Shown here piece by piece: positions 17,400-56,785 of a DNA stretch of 64,000 nt (position 1 is the first letter of the stretch; each line of letters begins with the position of its first letter). This DNA comes from a virus (Duplodnaviria > Caudoviricetes), in IMG/VR virus record IMGVR_UViG_3300049298_000033, positions 30,539-94,538 of that record; one strand, written 5' to 3'. The position numbers were made by a program, and so were the translations under genes. Under the pieces are notes generated by a model. It was not told the origin of the DNA, did not search any database, and saw only the letters and a list, made by a program, of their open reading frames with translations.

Positions 17400-17400
17400 C

Positions 17401-19160: not shown

Positions 19161-19247
19161 TACGTCACGGCGGCCGGTAACCCGGGCGGGCGGCCGGCCG
19201 CCGTGACCCTAACGCCCGCCGACTCAATCACCCACGGAGGTATCGGC

Positions 19248-19457
19248 ATGGCCGACGACCAGTCCGCCCCGGTGTACGTCAGCCCGGACGGATCCAGCGA
19301 GATGCGCGTGACGTCCCCGGCGACGCGCATCAACCTCGAACACCGCGGCTGGAAACCGAAGGGCGACGTGCCGCTTGCGACTACCAGCCCGCAGCCCATG
19401 GGCCAGACCGACGACACCCCGAAGTCCAAGCAGCGCCGTCAGGCCGCCGACGAGTAG
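19248..19457 (+). CDS. Small hypothetical tail-region protein
   Basis: GGAGG RBS. Confidence 0.6.
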   Translation: MADDQSAPVYVSPDGSSEMRVTSPATRINLEHRGWKPKGDVPLATTSPQPMGQTDDTPKSKQRRQAADE

Positions 19458-19475
19458 AGCAGGAGGCGCCCGCCC

Positions 19476-19841: not shown

Positions 19842-20278
19842 GGAGGTATGGCGGGCACATTGAAGCCGACCTGGCCGACCGAGGATGGGATCTGGCCGAG
19901 CTGTACCGCGGGCTCCGCTGGCGGTTCATCCTCAATCAGATCGACCATCTGGGGCGCACCAGCCACTTCATCGCGGCCGTCGCTGACGATGACGAGCTGG
20001 CCGAGCAACAGGCCGCCGGGAATGCCCCGGCCGGAGCGCCTGTCGTGCCACTGACGGAGTACTCCCCTGAGGCCGAACGGCTCTCGGCGCTGATCGACGT
20101 CATGCGTGAGCTGCTCTCCCTGGAGATCGGCAAGGCGACCCGCAAGAAACCGAAGCGCGTCCAGCCCTACCCGCGCCCTGTGACGGCGGCTCAACGCGTC
20201 AGCCGTCGGCGCAAGTACGAGAAGTTCCTTGATCTGAAGCATCGTCTTCTCGGAGACCGTGCGAACAGAGGGAGGTGA
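19811..20278 (+). CDS. Tail assembly chaperone frameshift extension (gpT-like)
   Basis: -1 frame open from GGGGGAA to 20278. Confidence 0.8.
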   Translation, partial: GGRQRLVYLLRRYGGHIEADLADRGWDLAELYRGLRWRFILNQIDHLGRTSHFIAAVADDDELAEQQAAGNAPAGAPVVPLTEYSPEAERLSALIDVMRELLSLEIGKATRKKPKRVQPYPRPVTAAQRVSRRRKYEKFLDLKHRLLGDRANRGR

Positions 20279-20280
20279 CG

Positions 20281-26159: not shown

Positions 26160-27094
26160 CGCAGGCTTCATGGCCGTCCCCGAGCCACGGCAGCCCGGCT
26201 CGGGCGGTCACCGATGCGGAGTATCCGCACCTGGCGCCCTGGGCGAGCGATGGCGTATTCCAGAGCGCGTCTGATGTGGTCTACGGCAACAGCTCCGGCC
26301 TTGAGGTGCATGTCCGGACCGGGAAGTATGCGATAGTGCAGGGCCACGCCTGGGAGTCCGGTGCGTCTGAGTTCGCCGTGGAGATCGCCGCGAACACCTC
26401 CGGGTCCACACGCGTGGACACGGTCGTGCTGCGTCTCGACCGCTCTACGTGGGATGTCACCGCCGCCGTCCGGCAGGGCACCCCTGGCGCCGGCCCGCCG
26501 ACGCTGCAGCGCGACGCCGGTGACACCGGCCTGTGGGAGATCCCGCTCGCCGACGTCACTGTCGACAATGGCGCCGCGACGATCGCCTCGGGAAAGGTCG
26601 TGGCCCGAACCTTGTTCCAGTCCGGCGCGATGCGGCCGTGCAACGTCATCACCGACATCCAGACCACCCTCGACGACGGCGACATGGTGTACGAGGCGTC
26701 GACGGGCCGGTGGATCGGCTGGGGCTCCGCCGGGGGTGTGGTGCTGTACGAGGACACGGGGAACGTCGCGGTGACGCTGACGAACTCGGCGTGGTCGCAG
26801 CTGCTGGCCTGCTCAGCGCGGCGTAGGAGCGGAATCGTTTCCCTGCGCTTCGCGATCACGCGGCAGAGCTCCACGTTCACGAAATCGGACCCGGATGGCT
26901 CGGCGCTGTGCACGCTGCCGTCGCAGTTCCGGCCGGATATCGACCAGTACGGGACAACCAGTTTCTCCGGCGGTATCGGGACTGCCCGCGTGCAGGTGCT
27001 GCAGGCCACCGGCGTCGTCAGCCTGCAACACAACACCGTCGACGTCACGGTCGGCCGTACAGCCGCGTTCTCGATGTCCTTCCCCGGGAGGTGA
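26156..27094 (+). CDS. Minor tail protein
   Basis: RVDTVVLRLD, WEIPLA, LP..FRP. Confidence 0.8.
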   Translation: MTQASWPSPSHGSPARAVTDAEYPHLAPWASDGVFQSASDVVYGNSSGLEVHVRTGKYAIVQGHAWESGASEFAVEIAANTSGSTRVDTVVLRLDRSTWDVTAAVRQGTPGAGPPTLQRDAGDTGLWEIPLADVTVDNGAATIASGKVVARTLFQSGAMRPCNVITDIQTTLDDGDMVYEASTGRWIGWGSAGGVVLYEDTGNVAVTLTNSAWSQLLACSARRRSGIVSLRFAITRQSSTFTKSDPDGSALCTLPSQFRPDIDQYGTTSFSGGIGTARVQVLQATGVVSLQHNTVDVTVGRTAAFSMSFPGR

Positions 27095-27156
27095 GCACTG
27101 TGCCGATCCTCATCCGCCGACCCGTGCAGCAGTCCACGACCGAGGAGGACCAGTAG

Positions 27157-27729
27157 ATGGCGCGGCATTTTTTCCTCGGTGATCTGTCGGCTTGGGCGAT
27201 GGCGCTCGGCGCGGATGAGACCTCCGTGGACTCCCAGTCCGGCAAACGGGTCCTGATGATCCCGTCAGCGTCGGTGACGTTCTGGACGGCACAGACCGGC
27301 GGTGTGCAGTACACGGATCTGCTCGACTCCATCGGCACGCCGATCACAGAGGCGACCGCTGACGACGACGGCGAGTTCAACCCGATCCAGGGCCCGGATA
27401 CCGATCCGGACACCTGGTACATGTGGGCGGACGGGTCTGGTGGCGCCGGGCCGCGTCAGCTGGTCATCGCCACCGACATGGGCGACACGGTCAACGCACT
27501 GGCCGCCACGATCAGCGACATGGCCGCCGACGCCGCTGCTCTCGGTGCTCAGGTGGCCGCCTCGCTGGGCGTCGTGAACTACGACACGACGACCTCATCG
27601 TGGCCGCCCCGGCCCGCCGGGGACCCGCGCCGGTTCATGTGGTTCGGTCCGACCGCGCCGCCCGTCGGCGGGGACTACATGGTCGATGGGCTCGACGTAT
27701 TCGCGAACACGAACCCGGCTGGATCATGA
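27157..27729 (+). CDS. Tail fibre-associated protein
   Basis: GAGGAGG RBS; TFWTAQTGG.QYTDL. Confidence 0.75.
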   Translation: MARHFFLGDLSAWAMALGADETSVDSQSGKRVLMIPSASVTFWTAQTGGVQYTDLLDSIGTPITEATADDDGEFNPIQGPDTDPDTWYMWADGSGGAGPRQLVIATDMGDTVNALAATISDMAADAAALGAQVAASLGVVNYDTTTSSWPPRPAGDPRRFMWFGPTAPPVGGDYMVDGLDVFANTNPAGS

Positions 27730-28664
27730 CGACCGTCGCGCTCTACATCGCCTCGGGCGGCCGGTTGCTGCCGCTGGCCGGCGGCCCGGCGATCATCCCG
27801 CCAGAGGCGCCCGGTGGCGGTGGCACGCCGACCGGCGATCGGAACGCGATGCTGGTTGGCGCGGCTTCGGCGAGCCTGGCGGGCAGCGACTTCGATGACC
27901 TCGACGCGAGCGCCGGGCCGTTCACCGTCAGGCGTTCCTACGAGACGGGCATCCCGGGCTCGTGGGCGGCGAGCGTCGCGGGGATCGACGTCGGCCGCCG
28001 TGCGTCGGTGTGGTCGTGCAAACCGGATCTGGCCGCGCTGGCCGCCGGGAGTCTCGATACGCAGATCCGGGCGCTGGTGGCCAGCATTCCGGTGACACAT
28101 GTGGCGTGGCTGACGGCGTGGCATGAGCCGGACCACAAGATCCGGAGCGGGGATTTCACCCTCAGCCAGTACCTGCCCGCGTTCGCCCGCTGGTGCTCCG
28201 TCGTGAAGCAGGCCGCGATCGAGTTCGGCCGCCCGCACGTCTACACCTGTCAGATCGTCGAGGCTTGGTCCGGGCAGCATCCGACGCCGGGTAGCACGTA
28301 CACGGACATGTGGCCTGGTGACGGGCTCGTCGACTGCTACGGCGTGGACGGCTACAGCAACACCGGGTCCGGTGAGACTCTGTGGGGCCCGGCGCGCACG
28401 TTCGCGGCCAGCCGCGGCATTCCCTGGGGGGTCGCTGAGGTCGGCTGCGGGACCGCGATCGACACCTCATGGATGACGGCGCAGGCGATCTACGCGGCGA
28501 CGCACGCGGCGGGCGGGGCGCACTCTCGGGCGGCGTTCTATTGCTGGTTCAGCAACAGCACGGGCGGGGTCGTCCCCACGCCGGGCACTGATCCGGCCGC
28601 GCTGGCCGCCGCGCGGAACATCAGCCAGACCTACTACGCGGACGTCAACGCGTTCGTGCTCTGA
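27726..28664 (+). CDS. GH26-like glycoside hydrolase (tail-associated)
   Basis: WHEPD, WPGD..VD..GVDGY, PWGVAEVG clan-A motifs. Confidence 0.7.
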   Translation: MTTVALYIASGGRLLPLAGGPAIIPPEAPGGGGTPTGDRNAMLVGAASASLAGSDFDDLDASAGPFTVRRSYETGIPGSWAASVAGIDVGRRASVWSCKPDLAALAAGSLDTQIRALVASIPVTHVAWLTAWHEPDHKIRSGDFTLSQYLPAFARWCSVVKQAAIEFGRPHVYTCQIVEAWSGQHPTPGSTYTDMWPGDGLVDCYGVDGYSNTGSGETLWGPARTFAASRGIPWGVAEVGCGTAIDTSWMTAQAIYAATHAAGGAHSRAAFYCWFSNSTGGVVPTPGTDPAALAAARNISQTYYADVNAFVL

Positions 28665-28676
28665 CCGGGAGGAACT

Positions 28677-29726
28677 ATGGCAGTAGGCATCCGTGGAGTC
28701 AGCTCCCTCGCGGTCGGCACGAACTCCATCGCCCCGACGATCCCCTCCAGCGTCCAAGCCGGCGACGCCTTGTTCCTGCTCGCCGGTGTCGGCGACGCCG
28801 GCGTCACATGGCCCACCCCCGACGGGTGGACGCTCGTCGAACGGCGGTCGCGGGACAGCGGCACCACCGGCATGATGGCCGCGCTGTACAAGCGGGTCGC
28901 GAGCTCCGGTGACGCCAGCGCGACGGTGACGCTCAGCGCCTCGACGACGGCCCATAGCGCCGCGATGATCATCGCGTTCAGTGGCTCAGACGTCGTCAAC
29001 CCGCTTCATGCCTGGTCAGGGTTCACTGAGTCGGCGGGCTCGGCCATCAACACGCACGCCCTGCCCAGCGTCACGACGACCCTCGACCAGTGCATGATCG
29101 TGAGCGGGATCGTCGGTAAGGACTCGGCGACGACCCTATGGACGCTCCCCGCGGGTTACACGAAGCAGACCGAGATCTACTTCGCACAGAGCGGCCGGAC
29201 GACCGGTGCGATGGGCACCAACGGCCCGCAGCCGATCGGCACGTACTCGCCCGGCAACGCCGCCCAGGACGGAGCGTCGAAGTACGCGTTCGCCTGGACG
29301 TTCGCCGTCGCCCCGTTCAGCAACGTCCAGAAGGCACGGCCAGTCGCCGACGAGGTCACGACCAGCGTCATCGGCGTGCCCACGCCCGGCACAGGCTCCG
29401 GCATCTACGCCGACGTCGCCGCCGACGATGACAGCCACTACGCGCGGCTCAGCAACGGCGGCGTCTATGAATGCCTCTTCGGAGCGCTCGTCGACCCCGG
29501 TGACAACACGGGCCACACGATCTCTTATCGGCTCCGATTCGCCGGCGGCGCAGCGAGCGGCTCATCCTCGACCGAGATCTGGCAGGGCGCCACCGTCATC
29601 GCGAGCTACACCGATACGGCCGCCGGATCCTTCGGCGACTTCAGCCATACCCTGACATCGACGCAGGCCGGGAACATCACCGACTACTCGGACTTGCGTG
29701 TCAGGTTTACCGCGACGGTCGCCTGA
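28677..29726 (+). CDS. Beta-rich tail/receptor-binding protein
   Basis: GGAGG RBS; Ser/Thr/Gly-rich; ITDYSDLRVRF. Confidence 0.7.
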   Translation: MAVGIRGVSSLAVGTNSIAPTIPSSVQAGDALFLLAGVGDAGVTWPTPDGWTLVERRSRDSGTTGMMAALYKRVASSGDASATVTLSASTTAHSAAMIIAFSGSDVVNPLHAWSGFTESAGSAINTHALPSVTTTLDQCMIVSGIVGKDSATTLWTLPAGYTKQTEIYFAQSGRTTGAMGTNGPQPIGTYSPGNAAQDGASKYAFAWTFAVAPFSNVQKARPVADEVTTSVIGVPTPGTGSGIYADVAADDDSHYARLSNGGVYECLFGALVDPGDNTGHTISYRLRFAGGAASGSSSTEIWQGATVIASYTDTAAGSFGDFSHTLTSTQAGNITDYSDLRVRFTATVA

Positions 29727-30031
29727 TGGCCGGCACGCTCGATGTCGCTCGCGTCCAGTTCTTCGCGCCGGCCGAACCGGTCCTCGACGTCTCCCAGGTC
29801 ACCTTCGAGGCGCCCGGCCCGCCGAACCCGAGCACCATCCCCTACCTCGACGTCGCCCAGGTGCGTCTCGCCGCACCGTCGCCGCCGCTGCCGTCATTTC
29901 TGGACATCGCCCAGGTGACGTTGAGAGCCCCACAGCCGCCGGGGGAGGCGCCGTACTCCGGTATCCGGGTCGCCCGCGACGGCAACTTGCACAACGTCTC
30001 GCTTCAGATCGCAAAGGGCGGAACGCTGTGA
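29726..30031 (+). CDS. Small protein with four LD(V/I)xxV repeats
   Basis: TGATG coupling; internal repeats. Confidence 0.7.
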   Translation: MAGTLDVARVQFFAPAEPVLDVSQVTFEAPGPPNPSTIPYLDVAQVRLAAPSPPLPSFLDIAQVTLRAPQPPGEAPYSGIRVARDGNLHNVSLQIAKGGTL

Positions 30032-30040
30032 GGGGGCCGA

Positions 30041-30364
30041 GTGGCGGATGAGCCATCGAACGCCGAACTTGCGCGCCGCCTCGCGGATATTGCCCTCCTC
30101 CTACAGCAAGTTGTCGGCCGGCCCGAGTACGCAGCGGACCAGCGCCATACCGAACATCGGTTCACCGAGATCGAACGGGACATCGAGGACGTCAAGAAGA
30201 CCCACAGCAAAGACATCGAGGCAATCCGCGGCCTGCTCGACAAGGCAGCGGAGAAGCGGGGAACGGACTGGAAGCAGGCCATCTACAGCGGTCTCCTCCC
30301 CGCGGTGTTCCTTGCGATCACGCTGCTCGTCACGATCCTGCTGGCGTTCAAGGGCGGCAAATGA
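30041..30364 (+). CDS. Coiled-coil protein with C-terminal TM helix (lysis-associated)
   Basis: [11 protein letters not shown]...[18 protein letters not shown]. Confidence 0.7.
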
Positions 30365-30903
30365 CTGAGCACATACGTAGGGCGCGCCGCGGACTCCCGG
30401 CCGTGCTGCTCGCCATCGTGTTCCTGGTCCTCGTGGCGTGGCTCGCAGTGGAGATCCGGGACGTACATGACCGGCTACGGCAGGCCCAACAGGACAATAA
30501 GACGCTCGCGCAGCAGGTCCGCGACCTGGGTGGGGTGCCGAAGGTGACGCCGCAACCGGGTCCGACAGGCGCACCAGGCAGTCCCGGCGCCCCCGGGCAG
30601 ACGGGATCCGCCGGTCAGCCGGGTTCGAATGGGAGACCGGGGCAGAATGGCGCTTCCGGGCAGCCGGGGAAGACTGGTCCGTCTGGCGCACCTGGAGCTG
30701 CGGGTGCTTCCGGCGCTCCCGGCGTGACGGGTGATACGGGTCCGAAGGGCGACAAAGGCGATACGGGGGAGCAGGGTCCGAAGGGTGATCAGGGTGACCC
30801 AGGGCCGCCTGGCCCGACGTGCCCGGACGGCTACCACACCACGACGACGACGGTCGTCACCGCGGCGGGCCCACAGGACGCCGTGATCTGCACTGCCGAC
30901 TGA
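30361..30903 (+). CDS. Membrane-anchored collagen-like protein
   Basis: N-terminal TM, long GXY run, CPDGY...VIC. Confidence 0.85.
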
Positions 30904-30913
30904 GGAGAGATAG

Positions 30914-31063
30914 ATGACGACCCCTGACGACCCGGACTTCATCCCGGCCGACGACCCGCGCTTCGTGCCGTACCCGGACGAGCCGCCGATGGACGCCAGC
31001 GGCCCGACCGACCGCAACGCGCCCGACCTTGGGGAAGTGGACGACGATGCCGACGAGAACTGA
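30914..31063 (+). CDS. 49-aa acidic Pro/Asp-rich peptide
   Basis: GAGGAG RBS; MTTPDDPDFIPADD...; below ORF-track cutoff. Confidence 0.55.
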   Translation: MTTPDDPDFIPADDPRFVPYPDEPPMDASGPTDRNAPDLGEVDDDADEN

Positions 31064-31952
31064 GTACGTCAAGTACCTGCGCTCGCTGGAGGGCGGGTAT
31101 GGCCCGGCGCGCGGCCTGCGGAACAACGACAACCAGTTCAACACCTGGTACTACGGCCGCCGTGTCTCCGGCGACGACTACGCCTGGTGCGCGGTGACCG
31201 AGTGCTACGTCGAGAACCATTTCGACATCCTGACGGTCAACGGCGGCAAGGTCGCCTATGTGCCCAACATGGTCGCTGTGGCGAAGAAGGCCGGTGCGAA
31301 GGTCTGGCATAAGCCGCGCATGGTGCCCGAGCAGGGCACGAGCTGGGCGAAGCCCGGCAACAAGATCACCTTCGATTTCAACAGGACGAATGAGGCCGAG
31401 CACACCGGCACGTTTGTTCGGCGGCTCAGCGCCACGAGGATTCTCACGAGCGAGGGCAACACCTCGACCAGCAGGTACAGCGATGCGCTCACGCCGAAGG
31501 AGCGCGACGTGGCCGACGTGCTCGACGTGATCGAGCTGCTCGGCGTAGACGGAGACAGCCCTCAGGAGGACGATATGCCCAGCTATGTGAGCCTCGGCCA
31601 GAAGAAGCCTCAGCAGGTCAAGAAGGGCGAGACCGTCCGCGCGATCTTCGACACCGAGTACAGCGACAGGGACAAGGCGCACGCCGACGGCCCGCACCCG
31701 GGCATCATCCGGGCAGGGAAGAACGGTACCCAGTTCGTCATCGAGGTCGACGTGGCGGGCTCCGGCGGCGGTGACTACCGGCTCGTCGAGACCGACCCGG
31801 CGAAGGACTACGCGGTCACCAAGACGTACTCGGTGAACAAGCCGACGTATGTCGGGCTGTGCGACGCCGGGAAGCACCTGTACGTCGAGCTGCACCCGGC
31901 GGCCGACGGCGACGCGAACGTGGCCGTGAAGGCCCAGTACTGGCACCGCTGA
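31047..31952 (+). CDS. Endolysin, CHAP-type peptidase
   Basis: NQFNTWYYG, AWCAV, EHTG, EGNT. Confidence 0.85.
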   Translation: MPTRTEYVKYLRSLEGGYGPARGLRNNDNQFNTWYYGRRVSGDDYAWCAVTECYVENHFDILTVNGGKVAYVPNMVAVAKKAGAKVWHKPRMVPEQGTSWAKPGNKITFDFNRTNEAEHTGTFVRRLSATRILTSEGNTSTSRYSDALTPKERDVADVLDVIELLGVDGDSPQEDDMPSYVSLGQKKPQQVKKGETVRAIFDTEYSDRDKAHADGPHPGIIRAGKNGTQFVIEVDVAGSGGGDYRLVETDPAKDYAVTKTYSVNKPTYVGLCDAGKHLYVELHPAADGDANVAVKAQYWHR

Positions 31953-32188
31953 TGGCCGACGAGCTACCGCGCGTCGAGCGCGACGAGGACGGTCACCCGG
32001 TCTGGATCGACCATTGCCCGGCCACATCGCCGGGATTCGATCCGGTGGCCCGTGTGACGCTGCCGCTCGGCCCGCAGGGCTGGCAGTGGACCGCAGACGG
32101 CGGGCTGACGCCGTCGATCCTCTGCGGAGGGTGCGGGATCCACGGCTTCTGGATCGGCGGCGAACAGCCGTACTGGCGTAGCTGCTGA
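31952..32188 (+). CDS. Small metal-binding protein (DUF6527-like)
   Basis: LTPSILC..C..HGFW. Confidence 0.65.
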   Translation: MADELPRVERDEDGHPVWIDHCPATSPGFDPVARVTLPLGPQGWQWTADGGLTPSILCGGCGIHGFWIGGEQPYWRSC

Positions 32189-32325
32189 GAGCCTACGCAG
32201 CTCCGTAAGCTGCCTGACCTGCCTTTTTCGCGGATCCGCGAAAAAGGTCCCGCGTTCATACCAGCGGATATACCGCCCCCTCTCGCCCGGCCAGCGTGCC
32301 GGGCTTCGTCATTCCTGGAGTCCGA

Positions 32326-33303
32326 TTGACCACCACGAAGCATGCTGAAGCGCGGCAGGTACCAGGCCGGCGTCTCGGCCGGCGAAAGCCGAAGAACGCA
32401 CCTGCACTGCGTCTCGCTAGCTTCCTCACTGGACGGGTCCCAGCGCATCCTGCCGCGGCCGACCACTTCGCCAAGGTCACCGACTGGGGCCTCTGGCAAA
32501 ACGACACCTACGGCGACTGCGGGCCCGTGTCGTTCTTCAACCTTCGAAAGCTCGTCACGGTCTACGCCACCGGCGAGGAAGTGCAGCCGACACAGGACGA
32601 TGTCTTCCGGCTGTACAAGCTCGTCAACCCCACGTTCGATCCTGACGACCCCGGAGGTCCTGGGGACGCGGGCGTCGACATGCAGACCATGCTCGAGCTC
32701 GCACTCAAGCACGAGGTGTGCGGCCCCGGCGTGATGCTCGGCTTCGCGAAGGTCGACGTCTCCAACCCCGACGAGGTCCGCGCCGCGACGAGCATCTTCG
32801 GCGGCGTCCTCCACGGCGTCGACCTCGAAACCGCGCAGCAGGACCAGACCGACGCCGGCCTGTGGGACTACAAGAGGTCGGGGGAGTGGGGCGGCCACGC
32901 GGTCCTCTCCGGCCGCTACACCGACCCTTCCGGCACCGCCCAGGACCGTACCGCGGTCGTCACCTGGGCTGAGGTCGTCGACTGCACGGACGCGTTCGAG
33001 CAGCATCAGCTCGAGGAGTGCTGGGTGGTGATCTTCCAGGAGCATCTGGATCATCCGGCATTCCAGGAAGGGGTCGACGTCACTGCATTGGCGAGTGCAT
33101 ACGAGTCCCTGACTGGGCGTCCGTTTCCCGGGCAGCCCAGCCCCGAGCCCGAACCCTCTCCTGAGCCTGCTCCGGGTCCTGTGGACGACGCTGACCGCGT
33201 TCTTGCGGAAGCTGCTCGGCACTGGCTGAGGCGCCGTCACCGCGGCGAGAACGAACACCTGGCGAGCGAGCTGATCGTCTGGCTCGCCTCGAAGAACCTC
33301 TGA
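32326..33303 (+). CDS. Papain-like (C1) cysteine peptidase
   Basis: NDTYGDCG, GGHAV, VTWA; TTG start after GGAG. Confidence 0.7.
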   Translation: MTTTKHAEARQVPGRRLGRRKPKNAPALRLASFLTGRVPAHPAAADHFAKVTDWGLWQNDTYGDCGPVSFFNLRKLVTVYATGEEVQPTQDDVFRLYKLVNPTFDPDDPGGPGDAGVDMQTMLELALKHEVCGPGVMLGFAKVDVSNPDEVRAATSIFGGVLHGVDLETAQQDQTDAGLWDYKRSGEWGGHAVLSGRYTDPSGTAQDRTAVVTWAEVVDCTDAFEQHQLEECWVVIFQEHLDHPAFQEGVDVTALASAYESLTGRPFPGQPSPEPEPSPEPAPGPVDDADRVLAEAARHWLRRRHRGENEHLASELIVWLASKNL

Positions 33304-33365
33304 ACCCTGTTCAACCTCTACTCGGCCCGCCATCGTGCGGGCCTCCGTCATGAAAAGGGAGACCC

Positions 33366-33713
33366 ATGAAGTACAGACTCACAGGGGAACCGGCCCTGGT
33401 CCTCACCCTCATCAACGCCGTCGTCGCGCTCGTCGCCGGCATGATCCCCGCGTTCACGCCCACCGAGGCCGGCGCCGTCAACGCTGCCGCGGCCGCAGTC
33501 CTCACGCTCGTCGCCGCCTGGGCCGTGAAGCCGTTCCCGGTCGCGCTGCTCATCGGCGCGTTCAACACCCTCGCCGCTTTGGCGGTCGCGTTCTACCCGC
33601 ATCTGCACTTGACGCAGAACTGGGTGGGTTTGGCGGACGCGGTGATCGCTGCGGCGTTCGGCGTGTGGATGCGGGTGCACGTGTCGCCTGCGCCGGCAAG
33701 CGTCGGACGGTAG
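33366..33713 (+). CDS. Holin
   Basis: Several TM helices; GEPAL start, R.HVSP end typical of actinophage holins. Confidence 0.8.
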   Translation: MKYRLTGEPALVLTLINAVVALVAGMIPAFTPTEAGAVNAAAAAVLTLVAAWAVKPFPVALLIGAFNTLAALAVAFYPHLHLTQNWVGLADAVIAAAFGVWMRVHVSPAPASVGR

Positions 33714-45620: not shown

Positions 45621-46073
45621 TTACTTCCTTCCGGTGATGATCGCTGCGGTGATGGCGAGCCAGCCGATATGCCAGGCCTGGTCGAGTGCGTAGGTACCTG
45701 TGCCGCACGGGGCTGCTTTGCCGTCGCCGAGCTCGTAGAAGCCTCGCTTGCCGAACCGTCCTAGACGGTCAACCAGCTTGGGCAGGGCTCCGTGTTCGCG
45801 GCGGTCGGCGGCATAGTGGCTGACGGCGTTGATGGTGAGGCCGATAGCGACACGGCTGACGCTGAGACGTTCCCTGGCGGCGATACAGCCGGCGGCGAGG
45901 AACAGCGCCTGGGTGGCGGTGAGGGTAGCGACGTGCGCGGCGCATGCCCGCTGGCCCCGTTCCCCTTCGTCGCCCTTGCGTTGTGCCTGGTTGTCTGTCT
46001 GGACCCAGTGGTCGGCGACTTCGTGGCCGGCGTGGAGGAGGGCGTAGACACCTCCGAGGTGTCCGAGGCTCAT
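45621..46073 (-). CDS. DUF3307-like membrane protein
   Basis: H..ADHWVQT, H, SHY.AD, DQAWH. Confidence 0.8.
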   Translation of the reverse strand: MSLGHLGGVYALLHAGHEVADHWVQTDNQAQRKGDEGERGQRACAAHVATLTATQALFLAAGCIAARERLSVSRVAIGLTINAVSHYAADRREHGALPKLVDRLGRFGKRGFYELGDGKAAPCGTGTYALDQAWHIGWLAITAAIITGRK

Positions 46074-47609: not shown

Positions 47610-47858
47610 TCAGGCCACCTCCAGGGTGTTGGTGAGGTGGCGGCGGCCAGCCTCAGTGATCGTGTACGTCGTGTGCACCGCACCGCGGTGAGCGGACAGG
47701 AACCCGTGCTCGGTGTTCTGGTTCAGCGCGGCGCGAATGTAGGAGTCCGGGACGTCCCGCAGGACACGGCGCACATCACCGGCAGTGAGCGGAGTGTCCT
47801 TGAAGACGGCCAGCACGGCGTTGTTCAGGTCGTTCCAGGTATCACTAGTAGAAGACAC
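47610..47858 (-). CDS. Winged-helix protein
   Basis: YTITEAGRRHL wing signature. Confidence 0.65.
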   Translation of the reverse strand: MSSTSDTWNDLNNAVLAVFKDTPLTAGDVRRVLRDVPDSYIRAALNQNTEHGFLSAHRGAVHTTYTITEAGRRHLTNTLEVA

Positions 47859-47891
47859 GGCAGGTGTCCTTTCGTGGGGGCGGTGTAGGGG

Positions 47892-49967
47892 TCAGGCGGC
47901 GCGTTCGTAGCGGCCGTAGCGGGGCTGGGTCAGGTAGCCGGCCGCGACAAGCTCCTTCAAGAGCTCGGCGACACGGCGATGCTTCAATCCGGTGTGCTCT
48001 TCGATCTCGCTGGGGCGTGTCGCGCCAAGCGCGACCGCTTCGAGTACTGCCTGCTGCGATGCACTGAGTTCCTCAGTCCGCGTCGGCCGATGTGGGGTAC
48101 GGACCTGTTCGGCCGTGAGTGCCCGCGGGAACTCGATGAGCTCACCGAGCTCCTCGTCGGTTGCCGCCGCGGTCGGTGCCGGACGGGTCAGGGCGACGGT
48201 CGGACGTGGCGCAACAACATCCGGGTCGAGGCCGTTCCGCATCGCCTCGACTCGGGCGCGGGCCAGGTCCCGTCGCTGTGCGGTTGCATCATCGACCTCA
48301 TCGAACAGAAACCCGCCACGGCTGCGTGCGAACGCGTTCGCTAGCAGTGGATCGATCTGCGGTGCAGGCTGGGCGGCGAGCCATCGGCCAGTAGCTTCGC
48401 TGTCATCTCCGGTATCACGGTTCCGGAACGGGGCGGTACGAGATCCATTCTCGGCGCTGCCCAGGATGTACCCATAACCGGGGATCTTCGGGAGGGTCTT
48501 CGGGTCGACATCAAGGCCCGGCATGAGGCCCTTCGTCTGGTTCGACGTGGACCGCAGAACGATGCCGTTACCTTCCATGATCGAAGAGCGGAGGGCTTCG
48601 TTGTTCCCAAACGTGACGAGGCCGGGATACTGCGACACGGTGAGCAACGCGAACCCGACCTTGCGGCCCTCGCGGGCGACATAGGAGGCTTTCGCGGCGG
48701 TCTCCTTGTCCGCGAACGGACGATGACACTCCTCGATGATGGTGAGGATCCCAGGCCGCTCGGAGGAAGCGGTGAAGCCGATCCAGCCCTCGGCGGCGTT
48801 CTCTTCGCCGCGGGCTGCGATACCCGCCAGAAGCGCCTCAAGGAGCATGTCGATGTTCACGCCCGGGATGAACACGCGCGCATTGTCGGCCAGCGCCGGC
48901 GACGACACACCACCCTGCGGGTCGACGTAGATGATGATGGTGTCGCCGCCGGACAGCGCGGAGATCGCAATGTTCTCCACGAGCCGAGACTTCCCGATAC
49001 CGGTACCGCCGATGATCACCCCAGACCACATGGAACCGGGCGTGTACAGCCGCCAGGACGCGTCCCCGGCGCCATCGGCGAAGGGGCCAAGGTTGAGCAT
49101 GCCGCCATCGCGACGCGGACCGGTGAAATTTACGTCCCCGGCGATCGGTGAGTTCGTGATGACCTGGAACCGGGCTCGGGCTGCGGACCGGCGCTGACCG
49201 GGAACCTTCGGCGGGCCTTCGAGGATGATCTCATCGACGTCCCGGTCGAGCCCGCCCGCGATCTTCTCCAGGTTCGCGAACGCTGTGGACAGGCTCTGCC
49301 GGCCGCGCCAGAACTCAAGTTCGAACGACTGCGTGTGCGGGGTGATCTGAGGGTTTACCAGCCGGGACTTCGGGAGCGGGCCGCCATCGCAGGCGACGTA
49401 CTGGTCCCAGTCCGCGACGATCTCGTCTATCTCGGTGATCTCCTCCTCTGCCGGCTCTTCAATCGCGTCCGGCAGCGGGCATCCGATCCGGTTCGCTCGC
49501 CACCAGGCCGCGCCGAACGCATAGTCCGCAGCGAGAAGAGCTCCGGCCTGTTCGATCGTCACTCCGAATGGTGTCGTCGCCAGCCAGGCGGACGCGAACA
49601 TGCCGGCGCCGAGGACACGGTTTGCCCAGCGAGGGCGCCGCCGGAGCATCGCCTTCCAGGCCGTAGCCGTCGTCATAGCGCCGCCCGCCGCAGTGACGAG
49701 CGCAAGCATCCACGCGGGCATGCCGCCGGGCGCGGCGATGGAGTGTGCCGCCAGGCCCGCACCTGCTACCCCGCCCGTAACGAGGTGGGGAACTATCTGC
49801 CGGCGCAGCCGCCACAGCGTGGACGTCAGGTCACGCTGGGTTTTCACGAAGATCCCGGAAGACTCCCAGCGCTTCGCCGTGTCGAGCGGCGTGGATCGGG
49901 TGTCGTTGTTGGAGTCGTGCCGAATGTCGTCGCCGGTGGCCTGCGGTGGCGTCTGCTGGTCCAACAT
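47892..49967 (-). CDS. traB: TraB-like FtsK/SpoIIIE conjugative DNA translocase
   Basis: N-terminal TM helices, Walker A GGTGIGKS, Walker B IIEECH, REGRKVG, SQYP, PGYGY, C-terminal winged helix. Confidence 0.85.
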   Translation of the reverse strand: MLDQQTPPQATGDDIRHDSNNDTRSTPLDTAKRWESSGIFVKTQRDLTSTLWRLRRQIVPHLVTGGVAGAGLAAHSIAAPGGMPAWMLALVTAAGGAMTTATAWKAMLRRRPRWANRVLGAGMFASAWLATTPFGVTIEQAGALLAADYAFGAAWWRANRIGCPLPDAIEEPAEEEITEIDEIVADWDQYVACDGGPLPKSRLVNPQITPHTQSFELEFWRGRQSLSTAFANLEKIAGGLDRDVDEIILEGPPKVPGQRRSAARARFQVITNSPIAGDVNFTGPRRDGGMLNLGPFADGAGDASWRLYTPGSMWSGVIIGGTGIGKSRLVENIAISALSGGDTIIIYVDPQGGVSSPALADNARVFIPGVNIDMLLEALLAGIAARGEENAAEGWIGFTASSERPGILTIIEECHRPFADKETAAKASYVAREGRKVGFALLTVSQYPGLVTFGNNEALRSSIMEGNGIVLRSTSNQTKGLMPGLDVDPKTLPKIPGYGYILGSAENGSRTAPFRNRDTGDDSEATGRWLAAQPAPQIDPLLANAFARSRGGFLFDEVDDATAQRRDLARARVEAMRNGLDPDVVAPRPTVALTRPAPTAAATDEELGELIEFPRALTAEQVRTPHRPTRTEELSASQQAVLEAVALGATRPSEIEEHTGLKHRRVAELLKELVAAGYLTQPRYGRYERAA

Positions 49968-50071
49968 CGGCTCCTCCGTTCTTTCAGGTCGATTGGCGGG
50001 TGGCGGGTCAGGGATCCCCGCGGCCCTGCGTCCGCGGGTGACCCTCACGCTCCACACGGAACGTGGCGTGG

Positions 50072-51229
50072 TTACTCGGAAGTCGCGAACTGCTTGTTAC
50101 CGGCGTCCGGGTTGGCGCTGTACGCCTCCGTGACGTTCAGGTGGGAGGTGAGTTCCTCGCCGGCCGTCTCGAAGCAGGCCTGCGCGAGCTTCAGGTACTC
50201 CTTGCCCTGCGTCATCGGGTCGGTGACGGACGCGCCGACCTCGCCGTTCTGCAGCGCGGCAATGGACTGCTCCACGCTCGTGGCGCCCTCCTCACACGTC
50301 TTCGCCATGGCCTCGTTGTAGGCGATACCGGACTGGTTTCCGGTGGTCTCGATCGTGGTGGTCACGTCGGTCTCCTCCTCGGGTGTGGTTGAACCGCCAG
50401 ATGCTCTGGCGGGGTCCTGGGTGGCCTGGTCGGCGAGCTGCCGGACCTGCTCGTCGTGCTGTTCTCGGGGAGTTGAGCTACGCGGGATCTGCGGGCAGTC
50501 GTCTCTGGCGTGATCGACACCCACAACCCACTGGCCGGGCCGTTGCTGGTCTTTCGTGAGCGTGATCGGCCCGCTGCAGTCTCGGCAGCGACTGCTCTTC
50601 TGGTACTCGAGCAGGTGCGGCGGGGGCTGGTCCGGGTCAATCTCCCGGTGGTATCGGGCCTCCCACGCATTGCAGACGTGGGCTGCCTCGGCCATAGAGA
50701 TATCGAGCTCATCGGCGAGCGCCACTGGGGTCGACGGCTGGCCGCCGTTGCGGCGGCGTATCGCATACCGCTGGTACAGCGATTCCCGCATCCCGCCAAG
50801 GACGTAGGTGTCTTCGTCATGTACGACCGGCGCCGGAGGTGCCGGCTCGGACGGCTGGGCCGTCTCGCCCGGAACGTCAGGAGCTGCGACGGCGGGTGTC
50901 GTGAGGGCTTCCTCCGGTCGTGCATTGGTCTGCACGGGAGCGGGAGCAGCGCCGTCTTCTGTCGCCCACTTTTCGTGGCGTTTCTGGGTGCGCTTCCCGG
51001 CCCACCGGGCGCGCCGTTCCTCGGCGGTTTCCCATGCATCGTTGTAAGCGTTCCGGAAGAACTTCCGATGCCCGCGGTTCGCGGTTATCGGACGATTCGC
51101 TTCACGCCGCCTGATGCGTTCCTGTTCGCGAATGAACGACGGCGGAATCCGGCCGGTGATCGCATAGATCAGGTCCTGCGTCGTGTTCCGCACGCAGTAG
51201 TAGGCGAAGATCACGATGAGGAGGGCCAT
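50072..51229 (-). CDS. AICE-type transfer-region protein; probable internal start at 50365 (helical ~97-aa domain)
   Basis: N-terminal TM, Pro-rich linker; GAGGAGGAG before in-frame GTG. Confidence 0.65.
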   Translation of the reverse strand: MALLIVIFAYYCVRNTTQDLIYAITGRIPPSFIREQERIRRREANRPITANRGHRKFFRNAYNDAWETAEERRARWAGKRTQKRHEKWATEDGAAPAPVQTNARPEEALTTPAVAAPDVPGETAQPSEPAPPAPVVHDEDTYVLGGMRESLYQRYAIRRRNGGQPSTPVALADELDISMAEAAHVCNAWEARYHREIDPDQPPPHLLEYQKSSRCRDCSGPITLTKDQQRPGQWVVGVDHARDDCPQIPRSSTPREQHDEQVRQLADQATQDPARASGGSTTPEEETDVTTTIETTGNQSGIAYNEAMAKTCEEGATSVEQSIAALQNGEVGASVTDPMTQGKEYLKLAQACFETAGEELTSHLNVTEAYSANPDAGNKQFATSE

Positions 51230-51675
51230 TAGCCGTGGCCGCCCATCTTCACAACCTGCGTGTGCAGACGCTGATACGTCTGATGCACTGCGTTACCGCC
51301 TGTGGCTCCGATCGAGCCGGCGATGACCAGCGCCAGCATCGTCGGCGCGAGGATGGCTGAGAACTGGGCAGCGTTGTCGGCGCGACGGTCGAACGCGATG
51401 TCCGCGACGGCGACACCGGCCGCGGCGATAGTCAGCGCCAGCGGGATCCCGATCTTCAGGGCTGTGGACATTCCCGACACCCAGTCGACGCTCCAGGCGA
51501 GGAAGTCGCCGAGGAACGTGTACGCCATGCCGAGCCCGGCGATGAGCGAGACGAGCATGACGATGACCGACACGGCGGTCTGGCCTCGTCCGCGCGCGTT
51601 GACGCGCTTGTTGATCACCCACCGGAGCGCGAGCGCCGGGAGCATGAGCGCGAACCCTTCCAAGTGCAGATGCAT
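51229..51675 (-). CDS. Membrane protein (Spd-like)
   Basis: About 4 TM helices; upstream of TraB. Confidence 0.7.
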   Translation of the reverse strand: MHLHLEGFALMLPALALRWVINKRVNARGRGQTAVSVIVMLVSLIAGLGMAYTFLGDFLAWSVDWVSGMSTALKIGIPLALTIAAAGVAVADIAFDRRADNAAQFSAILAPTMLALVIAGSIGATGGNAVHQTYQRLHTQVVKMGGHG

Positions 51676-51694
51676 TGTCCTTCTCCTTCCTGTG

Positions 51695-52144
51695 TTAAAT
51701 GAGCCAGCTCACCGGCGGGAACTGGGCGAGGACGAACAGCAGCGCGCTGGCGGCGATGAGCCGGGTCGGGCGCTTGACGATCCACTTGAGGTACTCGGCG
51801 ACTGTGACGATCGGTATGACGACGAGCAGGGAGTAGACCTGGCCGGCGGTGCGGGGGATGCCGTCCTTGGACGTCCACTCGCCGCGGCACGCGTAGGCCC
51901 ACTCCTGCTCGAGGGGTTCGCTGCCGTCTGTCCAGACCGCAGGCGGAGTGATCCAGTCCTTGAACCACTCCCACACATCCCAGAAGCCGTCACTCTCGGT
52001 CACTGCACTCTGTGGGTCGGACTGTGCGGTAGACTCAGTCCTCTCGCGCGCAGGTGCGCGCACGGACGCGTGGACCCCGTTCGAGGGCGCGTCTCCCCGC
52101 TGGTCCGCACTGTGCAGTGCACTGTGACTGTCCGTCACGGTCAT
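51695..52144 (-). CDS. Membrane protein
   Basis: Two C-terminal hydrophobic segments; W...RP.R. Confidence 0.7.
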   Translation of the reverse strand: MTVTDSHSALHSADQRGDAPSNGVHASVRAPARERTESTAQSDPQSAVTESDGFWDVWEWFKDWITPPAVWTDGSEPLEQEWAYACRGEWTSKDGIPRTAGQVYSLLVVIPIVTVAEYLKWIVKRPTRLIAASALLFVLAQFPPVSWLI

Positions 52145-52404
52145 GCCGCTACCTCCTTCAGGTTCAGAATCCGGTCGCCGGCGTCCGTGAGCCCATCGAC
52201 GACCTCGGTAGCGACGTCCACACGGCCTGGCTGGCGGGCCAACGCTGCCCGCACGTAGTCCGCTGCGGCATTCACCCGGTCGCGAGGATCGGTGAGGTCG
52301 GCGAGCTCGGCGTCGAGGCGCTGCCGCAGCCGCTGAGCGCTGACGGCCCGCTTCAGGGGCTTGCCCTTATCCCGCCGCCTACCGGCCATCGCTGGACTCC
52401 TCAC
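52141..52404 (-). CDS. Small helical protein
   Basis: ATGA overlap. Confidence 0.6.
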   Translation of the reverse strand: MRSPAMAGRRRDKGKPLKRAVSAQRLRQRLDAELADLTDPRDRVNAAADYVRAALARQPGRVDVATEVVDGLTDAGDRILNLKEVAA

Positions 52405-52606
52405 CGTGCGCTGGCTTCGGCTTCATGTAGGTCTGGTAGATCCAGGCGCCGACCACGACGAAGGCGACGACGACCAGGAAGCCGACGAACTTCATGTAGG
52501 TGTTCAGGTCCCATCCCGTGGCCGTCGCGAACACTCCACCGAAGACAGCCCCGGTGATGGCCGCCGCTACCGCGGTCGTTACGGCTGGTCTGATGTTGGA
52601 GCTCAT
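52379..52606 (-). CDS. Small 2-TM membrane protein
   Basis: Hydrophobic helices; GAGGA RBS. Confidence 0.65.
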   Translation of the reverse strand: MSSNIRPAVTTAVAAAITGAVFGGVFATATGWDLNTYMKFVGFLVVVAFVVVGAWIYQTYMKPKPAHGEESSDGR

Positions 52607-52608
52607 CG

Positions 52609-53090
52609 GGTTCCTCGATTCGGTTCACGGCAGGTTCGCGGTTCAGGGTGGTTCAGGTTCACGAGGCGGCTGCCTGGTTCGTGAGTTTCCGTGCTTCTAC
52701 GAGGCGGTTGTAGGCGGTCGTCTTCGTGAACCCGCACCGGTCGCGAACCACGCCCAAGGTGACGGCGTCGTAGCCGAGCTCGTCGATCAGGTCGCGAACC
52801 TGCTGAACCTCAGCGGCCTTCTTGCGCGCCCTGTCGCCGAAGCTGGTGGCGGTCGGCTTGGTTCGCTGCGGTTCCTGAACCTCGGGGTTTGGAACCTGCT
52901 GGTTCGCCGGTTCGTGAACCTCGGGTTCTTGAACCTCGACTCGCTGGTTCGCGGGTTCGGGTTCACGCGGTTCGCGTTGGTTCAGGTTCGCGGGTTCATC
53001 AGCATCGTGAACAGGGACATCGTGAACCTTCGGCTCCTCCGGTTCGCGAACTTGCTGAACCTCGGGTTCGTGAACCGGTTCGCTGGTTCG
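52609..53090. repeat. Dense GGTTC/GAACC repeat field (candidate clt/TraB or centromere-like binding locus)
   Basis: About 23 GGTTC plus 11 GAACC by manual count; extends beyond stop codon. Confidence 0.75.
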
Positions 53091-53852
53091 CGCAGAGAAC
53101 AGATCGTCGCCAACCGCGATCTCGCGGAGCGACGCCTCATCCTCGCCCGTGACCTTCTCGGCCTGGCCCCGGGCGGACACCGCGAACACGGTCGCGACGA
53201 TGAACGAGAAGAACGCGAACGCTGCGGCTCCGGCAGCGCAGATCGCACCGATCACGTTGCCGCCGTAGACGTTCGCTCCCATCGATGCCGCGAGAGGCGT
53301 GATCATCAACGCCCACAAGGCGACGTCCTGCCATGCCTTGACCTTCCCGCCATGCTGAGCCAGGTCGGACTTGGCGAGGATCACGACGGTCGCGAGCCCG
53401 GTGAGGCCGATCTCGGCGATGTACCCCGAACCCTTCGGGATGTTGTCGTACTCGCCGGCCAGGTGCTCCAGTCCGCGAGCCGACCCGAACGCCAACACGA
53501 CCGACGTGGCGAGCGACAGACGCATATACCGAATTCGGCTGGCATGCAGCGCGAGAACAGACCGGGCGGCCGATGAGGCTTCTCGTGCTTCCTGCAATGC
53601 CTCAAGCGCTTTTTCGGCATGCGAGGCACGTCGGTCCTCGACGCGGTGACGGCGACGAGTGCGGCCGTGCTCGGCATCCAATGCCATTCGGTGCTGAATG
53701 TCCCGGAGCCGGTCGGCGTGGGGGCGTACTGCGGGATTAGTGCGCGGGTCCGCGAGCCGTTCCTGACCCGGAATGCGGGCAAGGTCTTCGGCTTTCGATG
53801 TTTGGTCCTGAACGGACGAGACAACGTTAGGTATTTGCCTACGGAACTTCAT
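52659..53852 (-). CDS. SpdB-like spread protein (TM domain, repeat region, C-terminal HTH)
   Basis: About 4 TM helices, EPEV/EPAN repeats, C-terminal GFTKTTAY HTH-like. Confidence 0.7.
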   Translation of the reverse strand: MKFRRQIPNVVSSVQDQTSKAEDLARIPGQERLADPRTNPAVRPHADRLRDIQHRMALDAEHGRTRRRHRVEDRRASHAEKALEALQEAREASSAARSVLALHASRIRYMRLSLATSVVLAFGSARGLEHLAGEYDNIPKGSGYIAEIGLTGLATVVILAKSDLAQHGGKVKAWQDVALWALMITPLAASMGANVYGGNVIGAICAAGAAAFAFFSFIVATVFAVSARGQAEKVTGEDEASLREIAVGDDLFSARTSEPVHEPEVQQVREPEEPKVHDVPVHDADEPANLNQREPREPEPANQRVEVQEPEVHEPANQQVPNPEVQEPQRTKPTATSFGDRARKKAAEVQQVRDLIDELGYDAVTLGVVRDRCGFTKTTAYNRLVEARKLTNQAAAS

Positions 53853-54295
53853 GCCGCCACCGCCATCCGGTCGTTCCGGCGCCCTTCGGTGTTCCGGCAG
53901 GACGCACACTTGCCCGTGCGCCCGTTCTTCGTCTTCGGGTTCCGGTGGAAAGCCGACAGCGGCTTAATCTGCTCGCACTTTACGCACCGCTGGTGCCCGT
54001 CCGCGACAGGCTCCCGGCGCTCCTGGGCGAGCCGGCGGCGTTCCCGCTCGGACATGCCGCCCCAAATCCCGTACCGCTCGTCGTTGCGCAGTGCGTAGTC
54101 GAGGCATTCCGTGCGGACCTCGCATTTGCGACACACAGCTTTGGCGGCACGAGTCGAGCCGCCCTTCTCCGGGAAGAACGACTCAGGATCCGTCTCGGTG
54201 CAGCGGCTCTGCGCCATCCACGGTTCGGTGTCGACGAGGTCCTCGCGGTCGGGACGGTACAGCGCCTCCGCGCGGCGGATCTGGCGGGCGGTCAT
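53849..54295 (-). CDS. whiB: WhiB family transcription factor with extra C-terminal Zn finger
   Basis: C..DPE.FFP, CxxC, C, GIWGG. Confidence 0.93.
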   Translation of the reverse strand: MTARQIRRAEALYRPDREDLVDTEPWMAQSRCTETDPESFFPEKGGSTRAAKAVCRKCEVRTECLDYALRNDERYGIWGGMSERERRRLAQERREPVADGHQRCVKCEQIKPLSAFHRNPKTKNGRTGKCASCRNTEGRRNDRMAVAA

Positions 54296-56177: not shown

Positions 56178-56453
56178 TCACTGCCACTGGATCTCCAACC
56201 GGACCCCGCCGCGCAGCCCGTACTTGATGAGCTTCTGGAAGAGGTTGAAGATCTCCTCGCCGTGGTCGACGTCCGACAGCAGCCGTGTGCCTCCCATGGC
56301 GTAGATCCGGATCTCGTAGCCAGGCCACCGGTCAGCGCCCGATCCGTAGATGTGGTGTAGACGTTTGGTGAGTTCCTTGTCGGCGTCCTGCAGGATCTGG
56401 AGGGCTTTCGCGGTGTCGTCGGGGGAGATCCGCCAGACAGTCTGTTCGCTCAT
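56178..56453 (-). CDS. Hypothetical protein
   Basis: ATGA overlap. Confidence 0.6.
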   Translation of the reverse strand: MSEQTVWRISPDDTAKALQILQDADKELTKRLHHIYGSGADRWPGYEIRIYAMGGTRLLSDVDHGEEIFNLFQKLIKYGLRGGVRLEIQWQ

Positions 56454-56785
56454 GACGCCATCTCCTCTGCGGCCTGCTGGAACCAATCCTTGGCATAGTC
56501 CTCAAGCACGGGCTGAAGGCCGGCCTTGATCTCAGCGACATAGCCGTCAACGAAGACCCGCAGGATCAGCCGAGTCCGGTTGATGGTCTGGCCGGGGAGC
56601 TTGCGTGCGTCGTAGAGGCGGCGGACTGTCATCGGGCTTACGCCGATCGCCTTGGCCGCCTCGCCGACCCGAATGAACTCAGGCCGGTCGTCGGGCTCGG
56701 GGAGAGGGCGAACGTCTGCGACGTCCTGCGTCTCGTTGCCTTGCTCTTCGGTCTGGCCGCTCAAGACTTCCTCAACTGACTGCAC
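56450..56785 (-). CDS. Excisionase/Cro-like HTH protein
   Basis: IRVGEAAKAIGVSPMTVRRL...LPG..I. Confidence 0.8.
   Translation of the reverse strand: MQSVEEVLSGQTEEQGNETQDVADVRPLPEPDDRPEFIRVGEAAKAIGVSPMTVRRLYDARKLPGQTINRTRLILRVFVDGYVAEIKAGLQPVLEDYAKDWFQQAAEEMAS

Follow-up and report, generated by a model that had tools for sequence, protein, structure and literature searches.

Does the genome of a tailed phage carry an operon for conjugation, and if so, is this operon the phage's own? Gene flow by phages and gene flow by conjugation are as a rule viewed as distinct routes, and the question is raised by a locus in a 64,000-nucleotide stretch (hereafter the window) that covers bases 30539-94538 of the 94,538-bp IMG/VR record IMGVR_UViG_3300049298_000033 (Caudoviricetes; G000). 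All coordinates are given in window numbering unless marked as record positions. The locus (47610-53852) contains the gene of a 691-amino-acid (aa) ATPase and, upstream of it, six genes mostly for membrane proteins. An initial annotation of the sequence had read it as a Streptomyces-type conjugation module, composed of TraB and Spd-like genes, within the early operon of an intact phage. We interpret the block as a plasmid-type conjugative DNA-transfer operon that is a stable part of a ~95-kb temperate siphovirus-like element from a Thermomonosporaceae-like soil actinomycete, an interpretation that we hold with moderate confidence at most.

The ATPase was described in the initial annotation as an FtsK-family protein with a membrane N-terminus and a winged-helix C-terminus, and structure prediction bears this out. 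The AlphaFold (AF2) model (predicted local distance difference test 78) has four long N-terminal helices (residues 39-158) ahead of an alpha/beta motor (179-530), and residues 636-689 fold into a winged helix at the C-terminus. The N-terminal helices are Ala/Gly-rich and moderately hydrophobic, and none is called at a strict Kyte-Doolittle threshold. In a Foldseek search, the FtsK motor (6t8b, E 2.4e-13) and the conjugative coupling protein TcpA of pCW3 (6o1x, E 8.5e-13) were the top PDB folds, with EccC and HerA ranked below both. FtsK/SpoIIIE and TcpA are thus the best structural match to the motor domain, yet they differ from the ATPase in the N-terminal domain and in gene context. Residues G323, G325, K326, S327 and E413 are invariant among the 24 homologues of alignment A1. 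The Pfam family FtsK_SpoIIIE (PF01580) did not match the ATPase at E<0.01, and Pfam yielded weak winged helix-turn-helix (wHTH) families alone; the C-terminus matches MarR_2 (7e-4), and one homologue (P0076) bears PF09397 (Ftsk_gamma). As modelled, the ATPase has the plan of TraB, in which an FtsK-fold P-loop motor stands between a membrane anchor and a C-terminal winged helix, and it has this plan in common with TraB of pSVH1 and Tra of pIJ101.

Profile comparisons place the protein among plasmid transfer proteins. Its best NCBIfam match is the TraB model NF041214 (plasmid_TraB; 39.1 bits, E 3.4e-10), which is covered from profile position 5 to 630 of 639. A profile of the A1 homologues was compared by hhalign with three reference proteins, two of them plasmid Tra proteins and one the FtsK of a proteobacterium. 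Within this set, Tra of the pZL12-like pSLE1 scored highest (probability 99.2%, E 1.2e-19), followed by pIJ101 Tra (96.9%, E 1.5e-10), which aligned over the motor and the C-terminal wHTH, and by Escherichia coli FtsK (92.6%, E 4.4e-7), which aligned only over 140 core columns around the Walker motifs. Judged by these alignments, the ATPase appears nearer to plasmid Tra proteins than to FtsK. Relatives were detected by tblastn on 86 actinomycete plasmids (26-32% identity), and no match was obtained in 50,697 deposited phage genomes; the ATPase family therefore differs from the common phage FtsK-like family. The NCBIfam score, the profile ranking and the plasmid relatives together suggest a distant member of the plasmid Tra/TraB kind that lies outside the curated TraB equivalog. 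At least 100 homologues were found, mostly in Thermomonosporaceae and with Thermomonospora umbrina, Actinomadura decatromicini and A. harenae among the carriers, which makes the label Streptomyces-type a loose one. Six of the homologues lie on contigs of 95-108 kb (95,313, 96,738, 100,465, 101,564, 104,490 and 107,606 bp), a clustering that would be expected if whole replicons or elements of ~100 kb assemble as separate contigs.

The neighbours of the ATPase gene also point to plasmids. We compared the block by hhalign with the open reading frames (ORFs) around the ATPase homologue on two plasmids. The 84-kb circular plasmid of Saccharothrix sp. AJ9571 (CP091383.1) encodes ParAB and has no annotated phage or virion genes. 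Its 81-aa ORF matches the 87-aa gene of the window (97.4%, E 1e-11), its 177-aa ORF the 149-aa gene (96.5%) and its 144-aa ORF the 148-aa gene with four transmembrane (TM) helices (94.7%). These three ORFs stand in the same order as in the window and are followed by a 439-aa ORF, the ATPase homologue and a NUDIX gene. On the 29-kb plasmid of Nocardiopsis sp. MT53 (NZ_CP080601.1), a GntR regulator faces the operon, a NUDIX gene is present, and a match to the 149-aa gene (95.5%) occupies the same operon position. Downstream of Tra and NUDIX, this plasmid carries a DUF3307 gene that matches the DUF3307 gene of the window (99.4%, E 5e-22). Because three block genes and the DUF3307 gene are colinear with the operons of two plain plasmids, we regard the block as a plasmid-type transfer operon. 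The putative transfer operons of these plasmids are its closest whole-operon match (87-aa, 149-aa, 148-aa and ~400-aa genes, ATPase and, further on, DUF3307). Unlike the window, these plasmids carry ParA (the Saccharothrix plasmid ParB as well), NUDIX and GntR, and their annotation lists no virion genes.

Whether the operon also belongs with phage genes was assessed by scanning IMG/VR with the A1 profile, which returned ten records (G001-G010). Three of them (G001-G003; 87, 101 and 104.5 kb) contain five or six of eight block genes each, and the WhiB gene and the helix-turn-helix (HTH) gene at the head of the array are also found among them. Tail, tape-measure and replication genes are shared with the window at 26-66% identity and in the same order and orientation, and each has an HK97 capsid gene, a different and shorter one. 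Each of the three has exactly one detectable tyrosine integrase, located between the lysis end and the transfer arm, and no counterpart of the integrase at the left end of G000 (integrase 1) was found at the ends of G001-G003. The vegetative map of lambda has a similar layout, with int beside attP as the last gene of the leftward early operon. G003 is a whole stand-alone 104.5-kb contig with small genes without identified function at both ends; an ORF that spans its two ends, and would make it circular, was rejected as an artefact, its C-terminal half reading as wrong-frame sequence. In the 55.5-kb provirus G004, the ATPase gene (41-43% identity, minus strand) lies between DnaB (10.2 kb) and TerL (28.0 kb), and an integrase is found at the provirus end. 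G007 (65,532 bp; ends overlapping by 146 bp at 97.9%) encodes an ATPase relative (33-35% identity) together with capsid, tail-tube, Mu-F, DUF6093, GntR/UTRA regulators, a DUF2637 protein and two integrases. The block thus travels with tailed-phage genes in several diverged records, and the same block in related phages, which the initial annotation had proposed to look for, is seen beside siphovirus genes in G001-G003.

Some further features of these records are given as separate observations. G007 looks pZL12-like, and the 62,034-bp record G006 has an imperfect direct end overlap of 169 bp at 99.4%; both are probably closed circles, although they are listed as linear in IMG/VR. Three records of 17 kb (G008-G010; G008 with 17,404 bp and 17 genes, G010 with 17,382 bp and 19 genes) are very small and phage-like, with a 670-aa ATPase relative (28-31% identity), a Pfam portal match, a tail-gene-like array and a 501- or 521-aa ORF at the usual place of the large terminase, which it putatively encodes.

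Several results weigh against the interpretation of a phage-owned conjugation operon, and they concern both the nature of the operon and its ownership. With 39 bits, the ATPase falls far short of the curated cut-off of 800 bits for the equivalog NF041214, and weak matches to the same model, arising from FtsK, were obtained in 9 of 14 control genomes. The identification as TraB thus stands with regard to domain plan and profile ranking and is not matched by the family score. As to the naming of Spd-like genes, no block gene matched the NCBIfam models for SpdA, SpdB, SpdB2 or KilB at E<0.1, the hhalign probabilities between block genes and SpdA, SpdB and KilB of pIJ101 were below 5%, and the genes upstream of pSLE1 Tra showed no similarity to those of the block. 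Spd-like can be used here as an analogy from size, TM topology and operon position alone. FtsK-like genes have been reported from lytic Streptomyces phages, with roles only guessed at, and distant ATPase relatives occur in the 17-kb records, in which no integrase was detected. The co-occurrence with phage genes is biased, because the related records were found via the ATPase in a virus-only collection. The ATPase is absent from phages related to G000 by their terminase (56-71% identity) or by their tail module (up to 81%), so the virion modules are mosaic and not tied to the block; these phages do not mark the limits of the element. With regard to ownership, G000 itself carries two tyrosine integrases and two XRE-DUF5753 regions. 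Each integrase begins, on the left, a unit that is consistent in itself, as would be expected of two elements in tandem. A separate integrative element has to be reckoned with because the integrase at 34675-35688 ends the same arm as the block, and attachment (att) sites were not located because the record does not reach the true ends of the element.

The last two points lead to an alternative in which G000 contains two elements: an AICE-like (actinomycete integrative and conjugative element) unit that extends from the integrase at 34675-35688 over the transfer operon and its HTH/XRE regulators to at least 64 kb would lie in tandem with, or be inserted at the end of, a 64-kb prophage. The prophage would have its own left-end integrase and end at the holin, and the block would transfer only itself. 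This arrangement, which we consider unlikely, accounts for the minus-strand integrase at the left end of each unit and for the XRE-DUF5753 region that each unit has of its own. The left unit is complete alone, with integrase, regulator, DnaB, methylases, virion and lysis genes, and the right-hand parts of G000-G003 measure 22-35 kb, near the upper size of AICEs. The alternative would also fit the absence of the block from the terminase- or tail-sharing phages and the presence of the operon on plain plasmids. It is at odds, however, with the single integrase in the middle of each of G001-G003, which would leave their phage part with no detectable integrase, and with the order and orientation of genes that recur across four diverged records. 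ATPase relatives are moreover located inside the phage genomes G004 and G007, and the arm contains phage-family genes that have homologues in the other arm of G003. The CheckV completeness of 86-90% for records of 87-104 kb would imply a reference length near 100-117 kb, which also argues for one element.

Boundaries were also searched for directly. No att-like repeats bounding the arm were found in G000-G003, including the whole contig G003. In these four records, the gap next to the integrase had no direct repeats in common with other parts of the record, and terminal repeats were not found. No insertion sequence (IS) elements were found, no tRNA genes were detected in the window or at the junctions, and a search for serine recombinases was negative. 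In the scanned ORFs of the arm, neither a Rep gene (RepSA, RepAM, Prim-Pol) nor a NUDIX gene was detected, and ParA (AAA_31) and ParB were not found in G000-G004. The 450-bp gap that separates the holin gene from the minus-strand array, i.e., the junction between the two putative units, is bridged by one 48-kb contig from soil metagenome run X1. The contigs contained no credible excision or circularisation joints; the joints with short sides look like repeats or other organisms. The initial annotation had likewise seen no att or IS boundaries, but it had passed over the two tyrosine integrases. An AICE combines integrase, Rep and Tra genes within att-bounded 9-24 kb; the window arm has an integrase and a Tra-like gene only, is at least 30 kb long and is joined to a full virion module. 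It resembles AICEs in the integrase at the operon end, the TraB-type translocase with small membrane proteins and the prophage-like maintenance. It is unlike them in that RepSA/RepAM/Prim-Pol, NUDIX/Pif, GntR KorSA, a tRNA att site and flanking repeats were not found there. A pZL12-like phage-plasmid would combine virion genes with plasmid replication and partition genes in one replicon; in G000 the virion module is complete, and the copy in the window is classed as a provirus and belongs to a contig of 302 kb. That the block is a phage part, as initially claimed, is thus supported by its linkage in several records and by the lack of att-like repeats, and is weakened by the integrase that ends the same arm. 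We put the chance that the block in the G000 record belongs to a single element at slightly above even.

A second alternative leaves the module with the phage and denies it transfer to other cells. It might move phage or prophage DNA from one compartment to another within a mycelium, segregate this DNA into spores or exclude other incoming DNA. Such a role within the mycelium has to be considered because of the FtsK-like genes of lytic phages and the relatives in the 17-kb phage-like records, which have a portal and no integrase, and the fold of the ATPase is equally close to FtsK, a segregation motor. GntR and NUDIX genes are typical of actinomycete conjugative plasmids, and it is with plasmids bearing such genes that the whole operon is shared, which speaks against a module devoid of transfer function, as does the lack of any tblastn match among the deposited phages. 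We judge this alternative to be quite improbable, and it overlaps with the interpretation as a conjugative operon because intramycelial spread is part of the TraB/Spd mechanism.

Defence or a type VII-like secretion system, instead of DNA transfer, would be a third explanation of the ATPase, given that PADLOC reports P-loop matches to the HerA and mad8 models and that EccC is among the fold matches. The PADLOC matches are, however, local and extend over no more than 40-50 residues at the Walker motifs. In the fold search EccC comes after FtsK and TcpA, the protein has a single ATPase domain, and its C-terminal winged helix aligns with pIJ101 Tra. As no Esx, EccB or EccD-like genes were found either, we consider this explanation highly improbable.

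If the block is a conjugative operon of the phage, a candidate for its cis-acting locus of transfer (clt) is located within it. A field of GAACC/GGTTC repeats (52607-53214) contains 34 copies where 1.6 are expected from the rest of the record (Poisson 1e-32), and it is the densest 7-mer cluster of the 94.5-kb record. Six copies lie inside the non-coding gap 52607-52660. In the coding part of the field, GAA accounts for 11 of 16 Glu codons as compared to 26% record-wide (p = 4e-4). G002 and G003 have a GAACC field at the homologous gene as well, and its absence from G001 adds to the points against our interpretation. We predict from these repeat statistics that the field is a candidate clt site for the winged helix of the ATPase. 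Published TraB recognition sequences (TRS) are unlike the repeat unit (C/T)GAACC. Other repeat arrays of 6-8 copies, AACCCTT / GGAACCCTTC, were observed in G001 (L014 2191-2695) and G004 (L031 9564-9771), in the latter inside the gene just upstream of DnaB. They are maybe origin iterons, or a recognition site in G001, which has no GAACC field.

Transfer could proceed analogous to plasmid models. Briefly, the ATPase would assemble into a ring at the membrane, as for TraB of pSVH1 and the tra locus of pZL12, and its winged helix would recognise short repeats, for which the GAACC field is the candidate site. The motor might then pump the excised double-stranded element into a neighbouring hypha, while the small membrane proteins could aid passage through walls and cross-walls. 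The result would be an element with two routes, virions and cell contact. With less than even confidence, we extend this proposal to a widespread lineage of ~90-105 kb temperate actinophages with integrases, a complete TraB operon and an own clt field, without ParAB, that spread both as virions and as double-stranded DNA by contact.

The idea of a dual route, as put forward in the initial annotation, is not new, because pZL12 is already cited as a plasmid-phage with a conjugal transfer (tra) locus for which dual spread was reported experimentally (2010). For pSLE1 (NZ_LN831788.1), synteny with pZL12 has been described, along with ParAB and two integrases. The ATPase family of the window aligns best with pSLE1 Tra, and two integrases are likewise present in G000. 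In contrast, only the ATPase and one gene outside the block (window positions -599..-126) are detectably common to the compared half of pSLE1 (43-86 kb). pZL12 and pSLE1 further differ in having ParAB, plasmid replication and a Tra gene just upstream of the terminase. In the window lineage, ParA and ParB were not found, the module is encoded on the opposite strand, as part of a leftward array with an integrase at its end, the conserved set of membrane proteins is its own and is common to other plasmids, and the repeat field is distinct. As in pIJ101-type systems, small membrane proteins are part of the operon and dense short repeats nearby recall clt/TRS, but the small genes of pIJ101 are downstream of Tra, whereas those of the window are mostly upstream of the ATPase gene.

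According to a 2025 review, conjugation has not been found in any phage-plasmid. If our interpretation is true, the records described here would be real conjugative phages and contradict this statement. They would represent a second, unrelated and apparently common lineage that combines virion genes with a TraB operon, and such hybrids would recur in mycelial actinomycetes. Contact-dependent spread through hyphae could bypass receptor limits and the decay of extracellular virions. The comparison also yields a conserved five-gene transfer core that is common to plain plasmids, along with a predicted candidate recognition repeat of the winged helix.

The features on which this argument draws are collected in Table 1, in the order of the record. 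All block ORFs named in the initial annotation are present on the minus strand, and its account of six mostly membrane-protein genes upstream of the ATPase is accurate: four of the six have 2-4 predicted TM helices, one has a hydrophobic N-terminus only and one is soluble.

Table 1. Coordinates of the transfer block and of other features of the G000 record (window numbering unless marked as record)
Feature	Coordinates	Strand	Remarks
Tyrosine integrase 1, 490 aa	record 1-1473	-	Left end of record
XRE-DUF5753 regulator, left	record 3617-4453	-	Beside integrase 1 unit
Early genes after left regulator		+	PD-(D/E)XK nuclease, N6 methylase, DnaB, C5 methylase, Thg1
Siphovirus packaging/head/tail/lysis module, complete	8395..33713	+	TerL, portal, S78 protease, HK97 capsid, adaptor, major tail, tape measure, Dit, Sipho_Gp37, endolysin, holin
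Tyrosine integrase 2	34675-35688	-	Pfam Phage_integrase 3.6e-25; 3' end of leftward array, beside gap after holin
DUF3307 membrane protein	45621..46073	-	phrog_2470 1e-15; homologues in G001, G002
Four tiny genes, 101/69/55/55 aa	46746..47606	-	3-nt spacing, operon continues
82-aa winged-helix-like protein	47610..47858	-	Just downstream of ATPase; phrog_2440, E 6e-4
TraB/Tra-like ATPase, 691 aa	47892..49967	-	ATG after GGAGG; Walker A GGTGIGKS at residue 320
385-aa protein, hydrophobic N-terminus only	50072..51229	-	Directly upstream of ATPase
148-aa protein, 4 TM	51229..51675	-	TM scan; homologues in G001-G003
149-aa protein, 2 C-terminal TM	51695..52144	-	Homologues in G001-G003, G005-G007
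87-aa soluble protein	52141..52404	-	Homologues in G001-G003
75-aa protein, 2 TM	52379..52606	-	TM scan; homologues looked for, none found
GAACC/GGTTC repeat field, candidate clt site	52607..53214	.	34 copies in 608 bp
397-aa protein, 3 TM, acidic Glu/Pro repeats, HTH-like C-terminus	52659..53852	-	Homologues (45-67%) beside WhiB in G001-G003
WhiB-like regulator, C-terminal zinc-ribbon region	53849..54295	-	Pfam Whib 8e-26, phrog_472; immediately upstream of block
HTH_17 (Xis/MerR-type) gene heading leftward array	56450..56785	-	Pfam; kept in G001-G003; faces DUF6879 and XRE-DUF5753 genes
XRE-DUF5753 regulator, right	57801-58685	+	After DUF6879 gene

Within the block, the 149-aa protein is the most widely conserved partner of the ATPase. 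Homologues of the 385-aa protein are encoded directly upstream of the ATPase in G002, G003, G005 and G006; this protein had no family match, and an Atlas search was uninformative. The coupling of the block to the WhiB gene is as initially described: the plus strand reads TCAT at 53849-53852, so that the start codon of the 397-aa gene and the stop codon of WhiB overlap as ATGA, and WhiB occupies the same position in G001 and G003. The last ~60 residues of the 397-aa protein (DLIDELGYDAVTLGVVRDRCGFTKTTAYNRLVEARKL; 52659-52850) have the look of a helix-turn-helix, and the protein is possibly a membrane protein with a cytoplasmic DNA-binding end; the same gene bears the GAACC field. Downstream of the ATPase, the 101-aa tiny gene is 66% identical in G001, and no conservation of the 82-aa winged-helix-like protein was found in the relatives.

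The leftward array in which the block is embedded runs from the HTH_17 gene down to integrase 2 and two small ORFs, and no terminator-like sites were found on the minus strand from 56.8 to 44 kb. A copy of the XRE-DUF5753 gene is retained in G001-G003, between the lysis genes and the middle integrase. Between integrase 2 and the block, the arm encodes an RNA ligase (phrog_14301, 2e-36) and an RNase H-like protein (phrog_2259, 3e-50), and homologues of both genes are located in the plus arm of G003. The virion and lysis genes form a complete module, in agreement with the initial description of an intact tailed phage. TerS and TerL (8395-10615) have counterparts of 48-71% identity in phages of 43-55 kb, which have hardly anything else in common with G000; in one of these phages, a WhiB-like gene and a further gene are shared as well. 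For the tail module (18172-30031), identity to G024 is up to 81%, and G024 shares little beyond it, namely three other genes, one of them at 78%.

G000 is classed as a provirus with a CheckV completeness of 90%, and the 691-aa ATPase protein is recorded from a 302-kb contig. The entire stretch is contained in run X1, the possible source. In an independent soil study (run X2), 91% of the sampled words are present and the listed contigs match without differences, and contig comparison shows that both arms occur in the two studies. The summed contig word depth of both arms is ~13x in X1 and 4-8x in X2, values that are depths and not copy numbers. The GC content is 62-69% across the whole window. 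At 38005-38671, which overlaps the RNA-ligase-like gene (38089-38703), the summed depth is far above the background of 1-8x, with 60x in X2 and 186x in run X3, and many short joints occur; close relatives of this gene seem to be abundant in other organisms of those soils. A 103-aa protein (62076-62387, minus strand) is 92% identical to the product of a gene near the left end of G002, whereas the remainder of the two records is 30-60% identical, which suggests recent exchange or unusually strong constraint on this gene.

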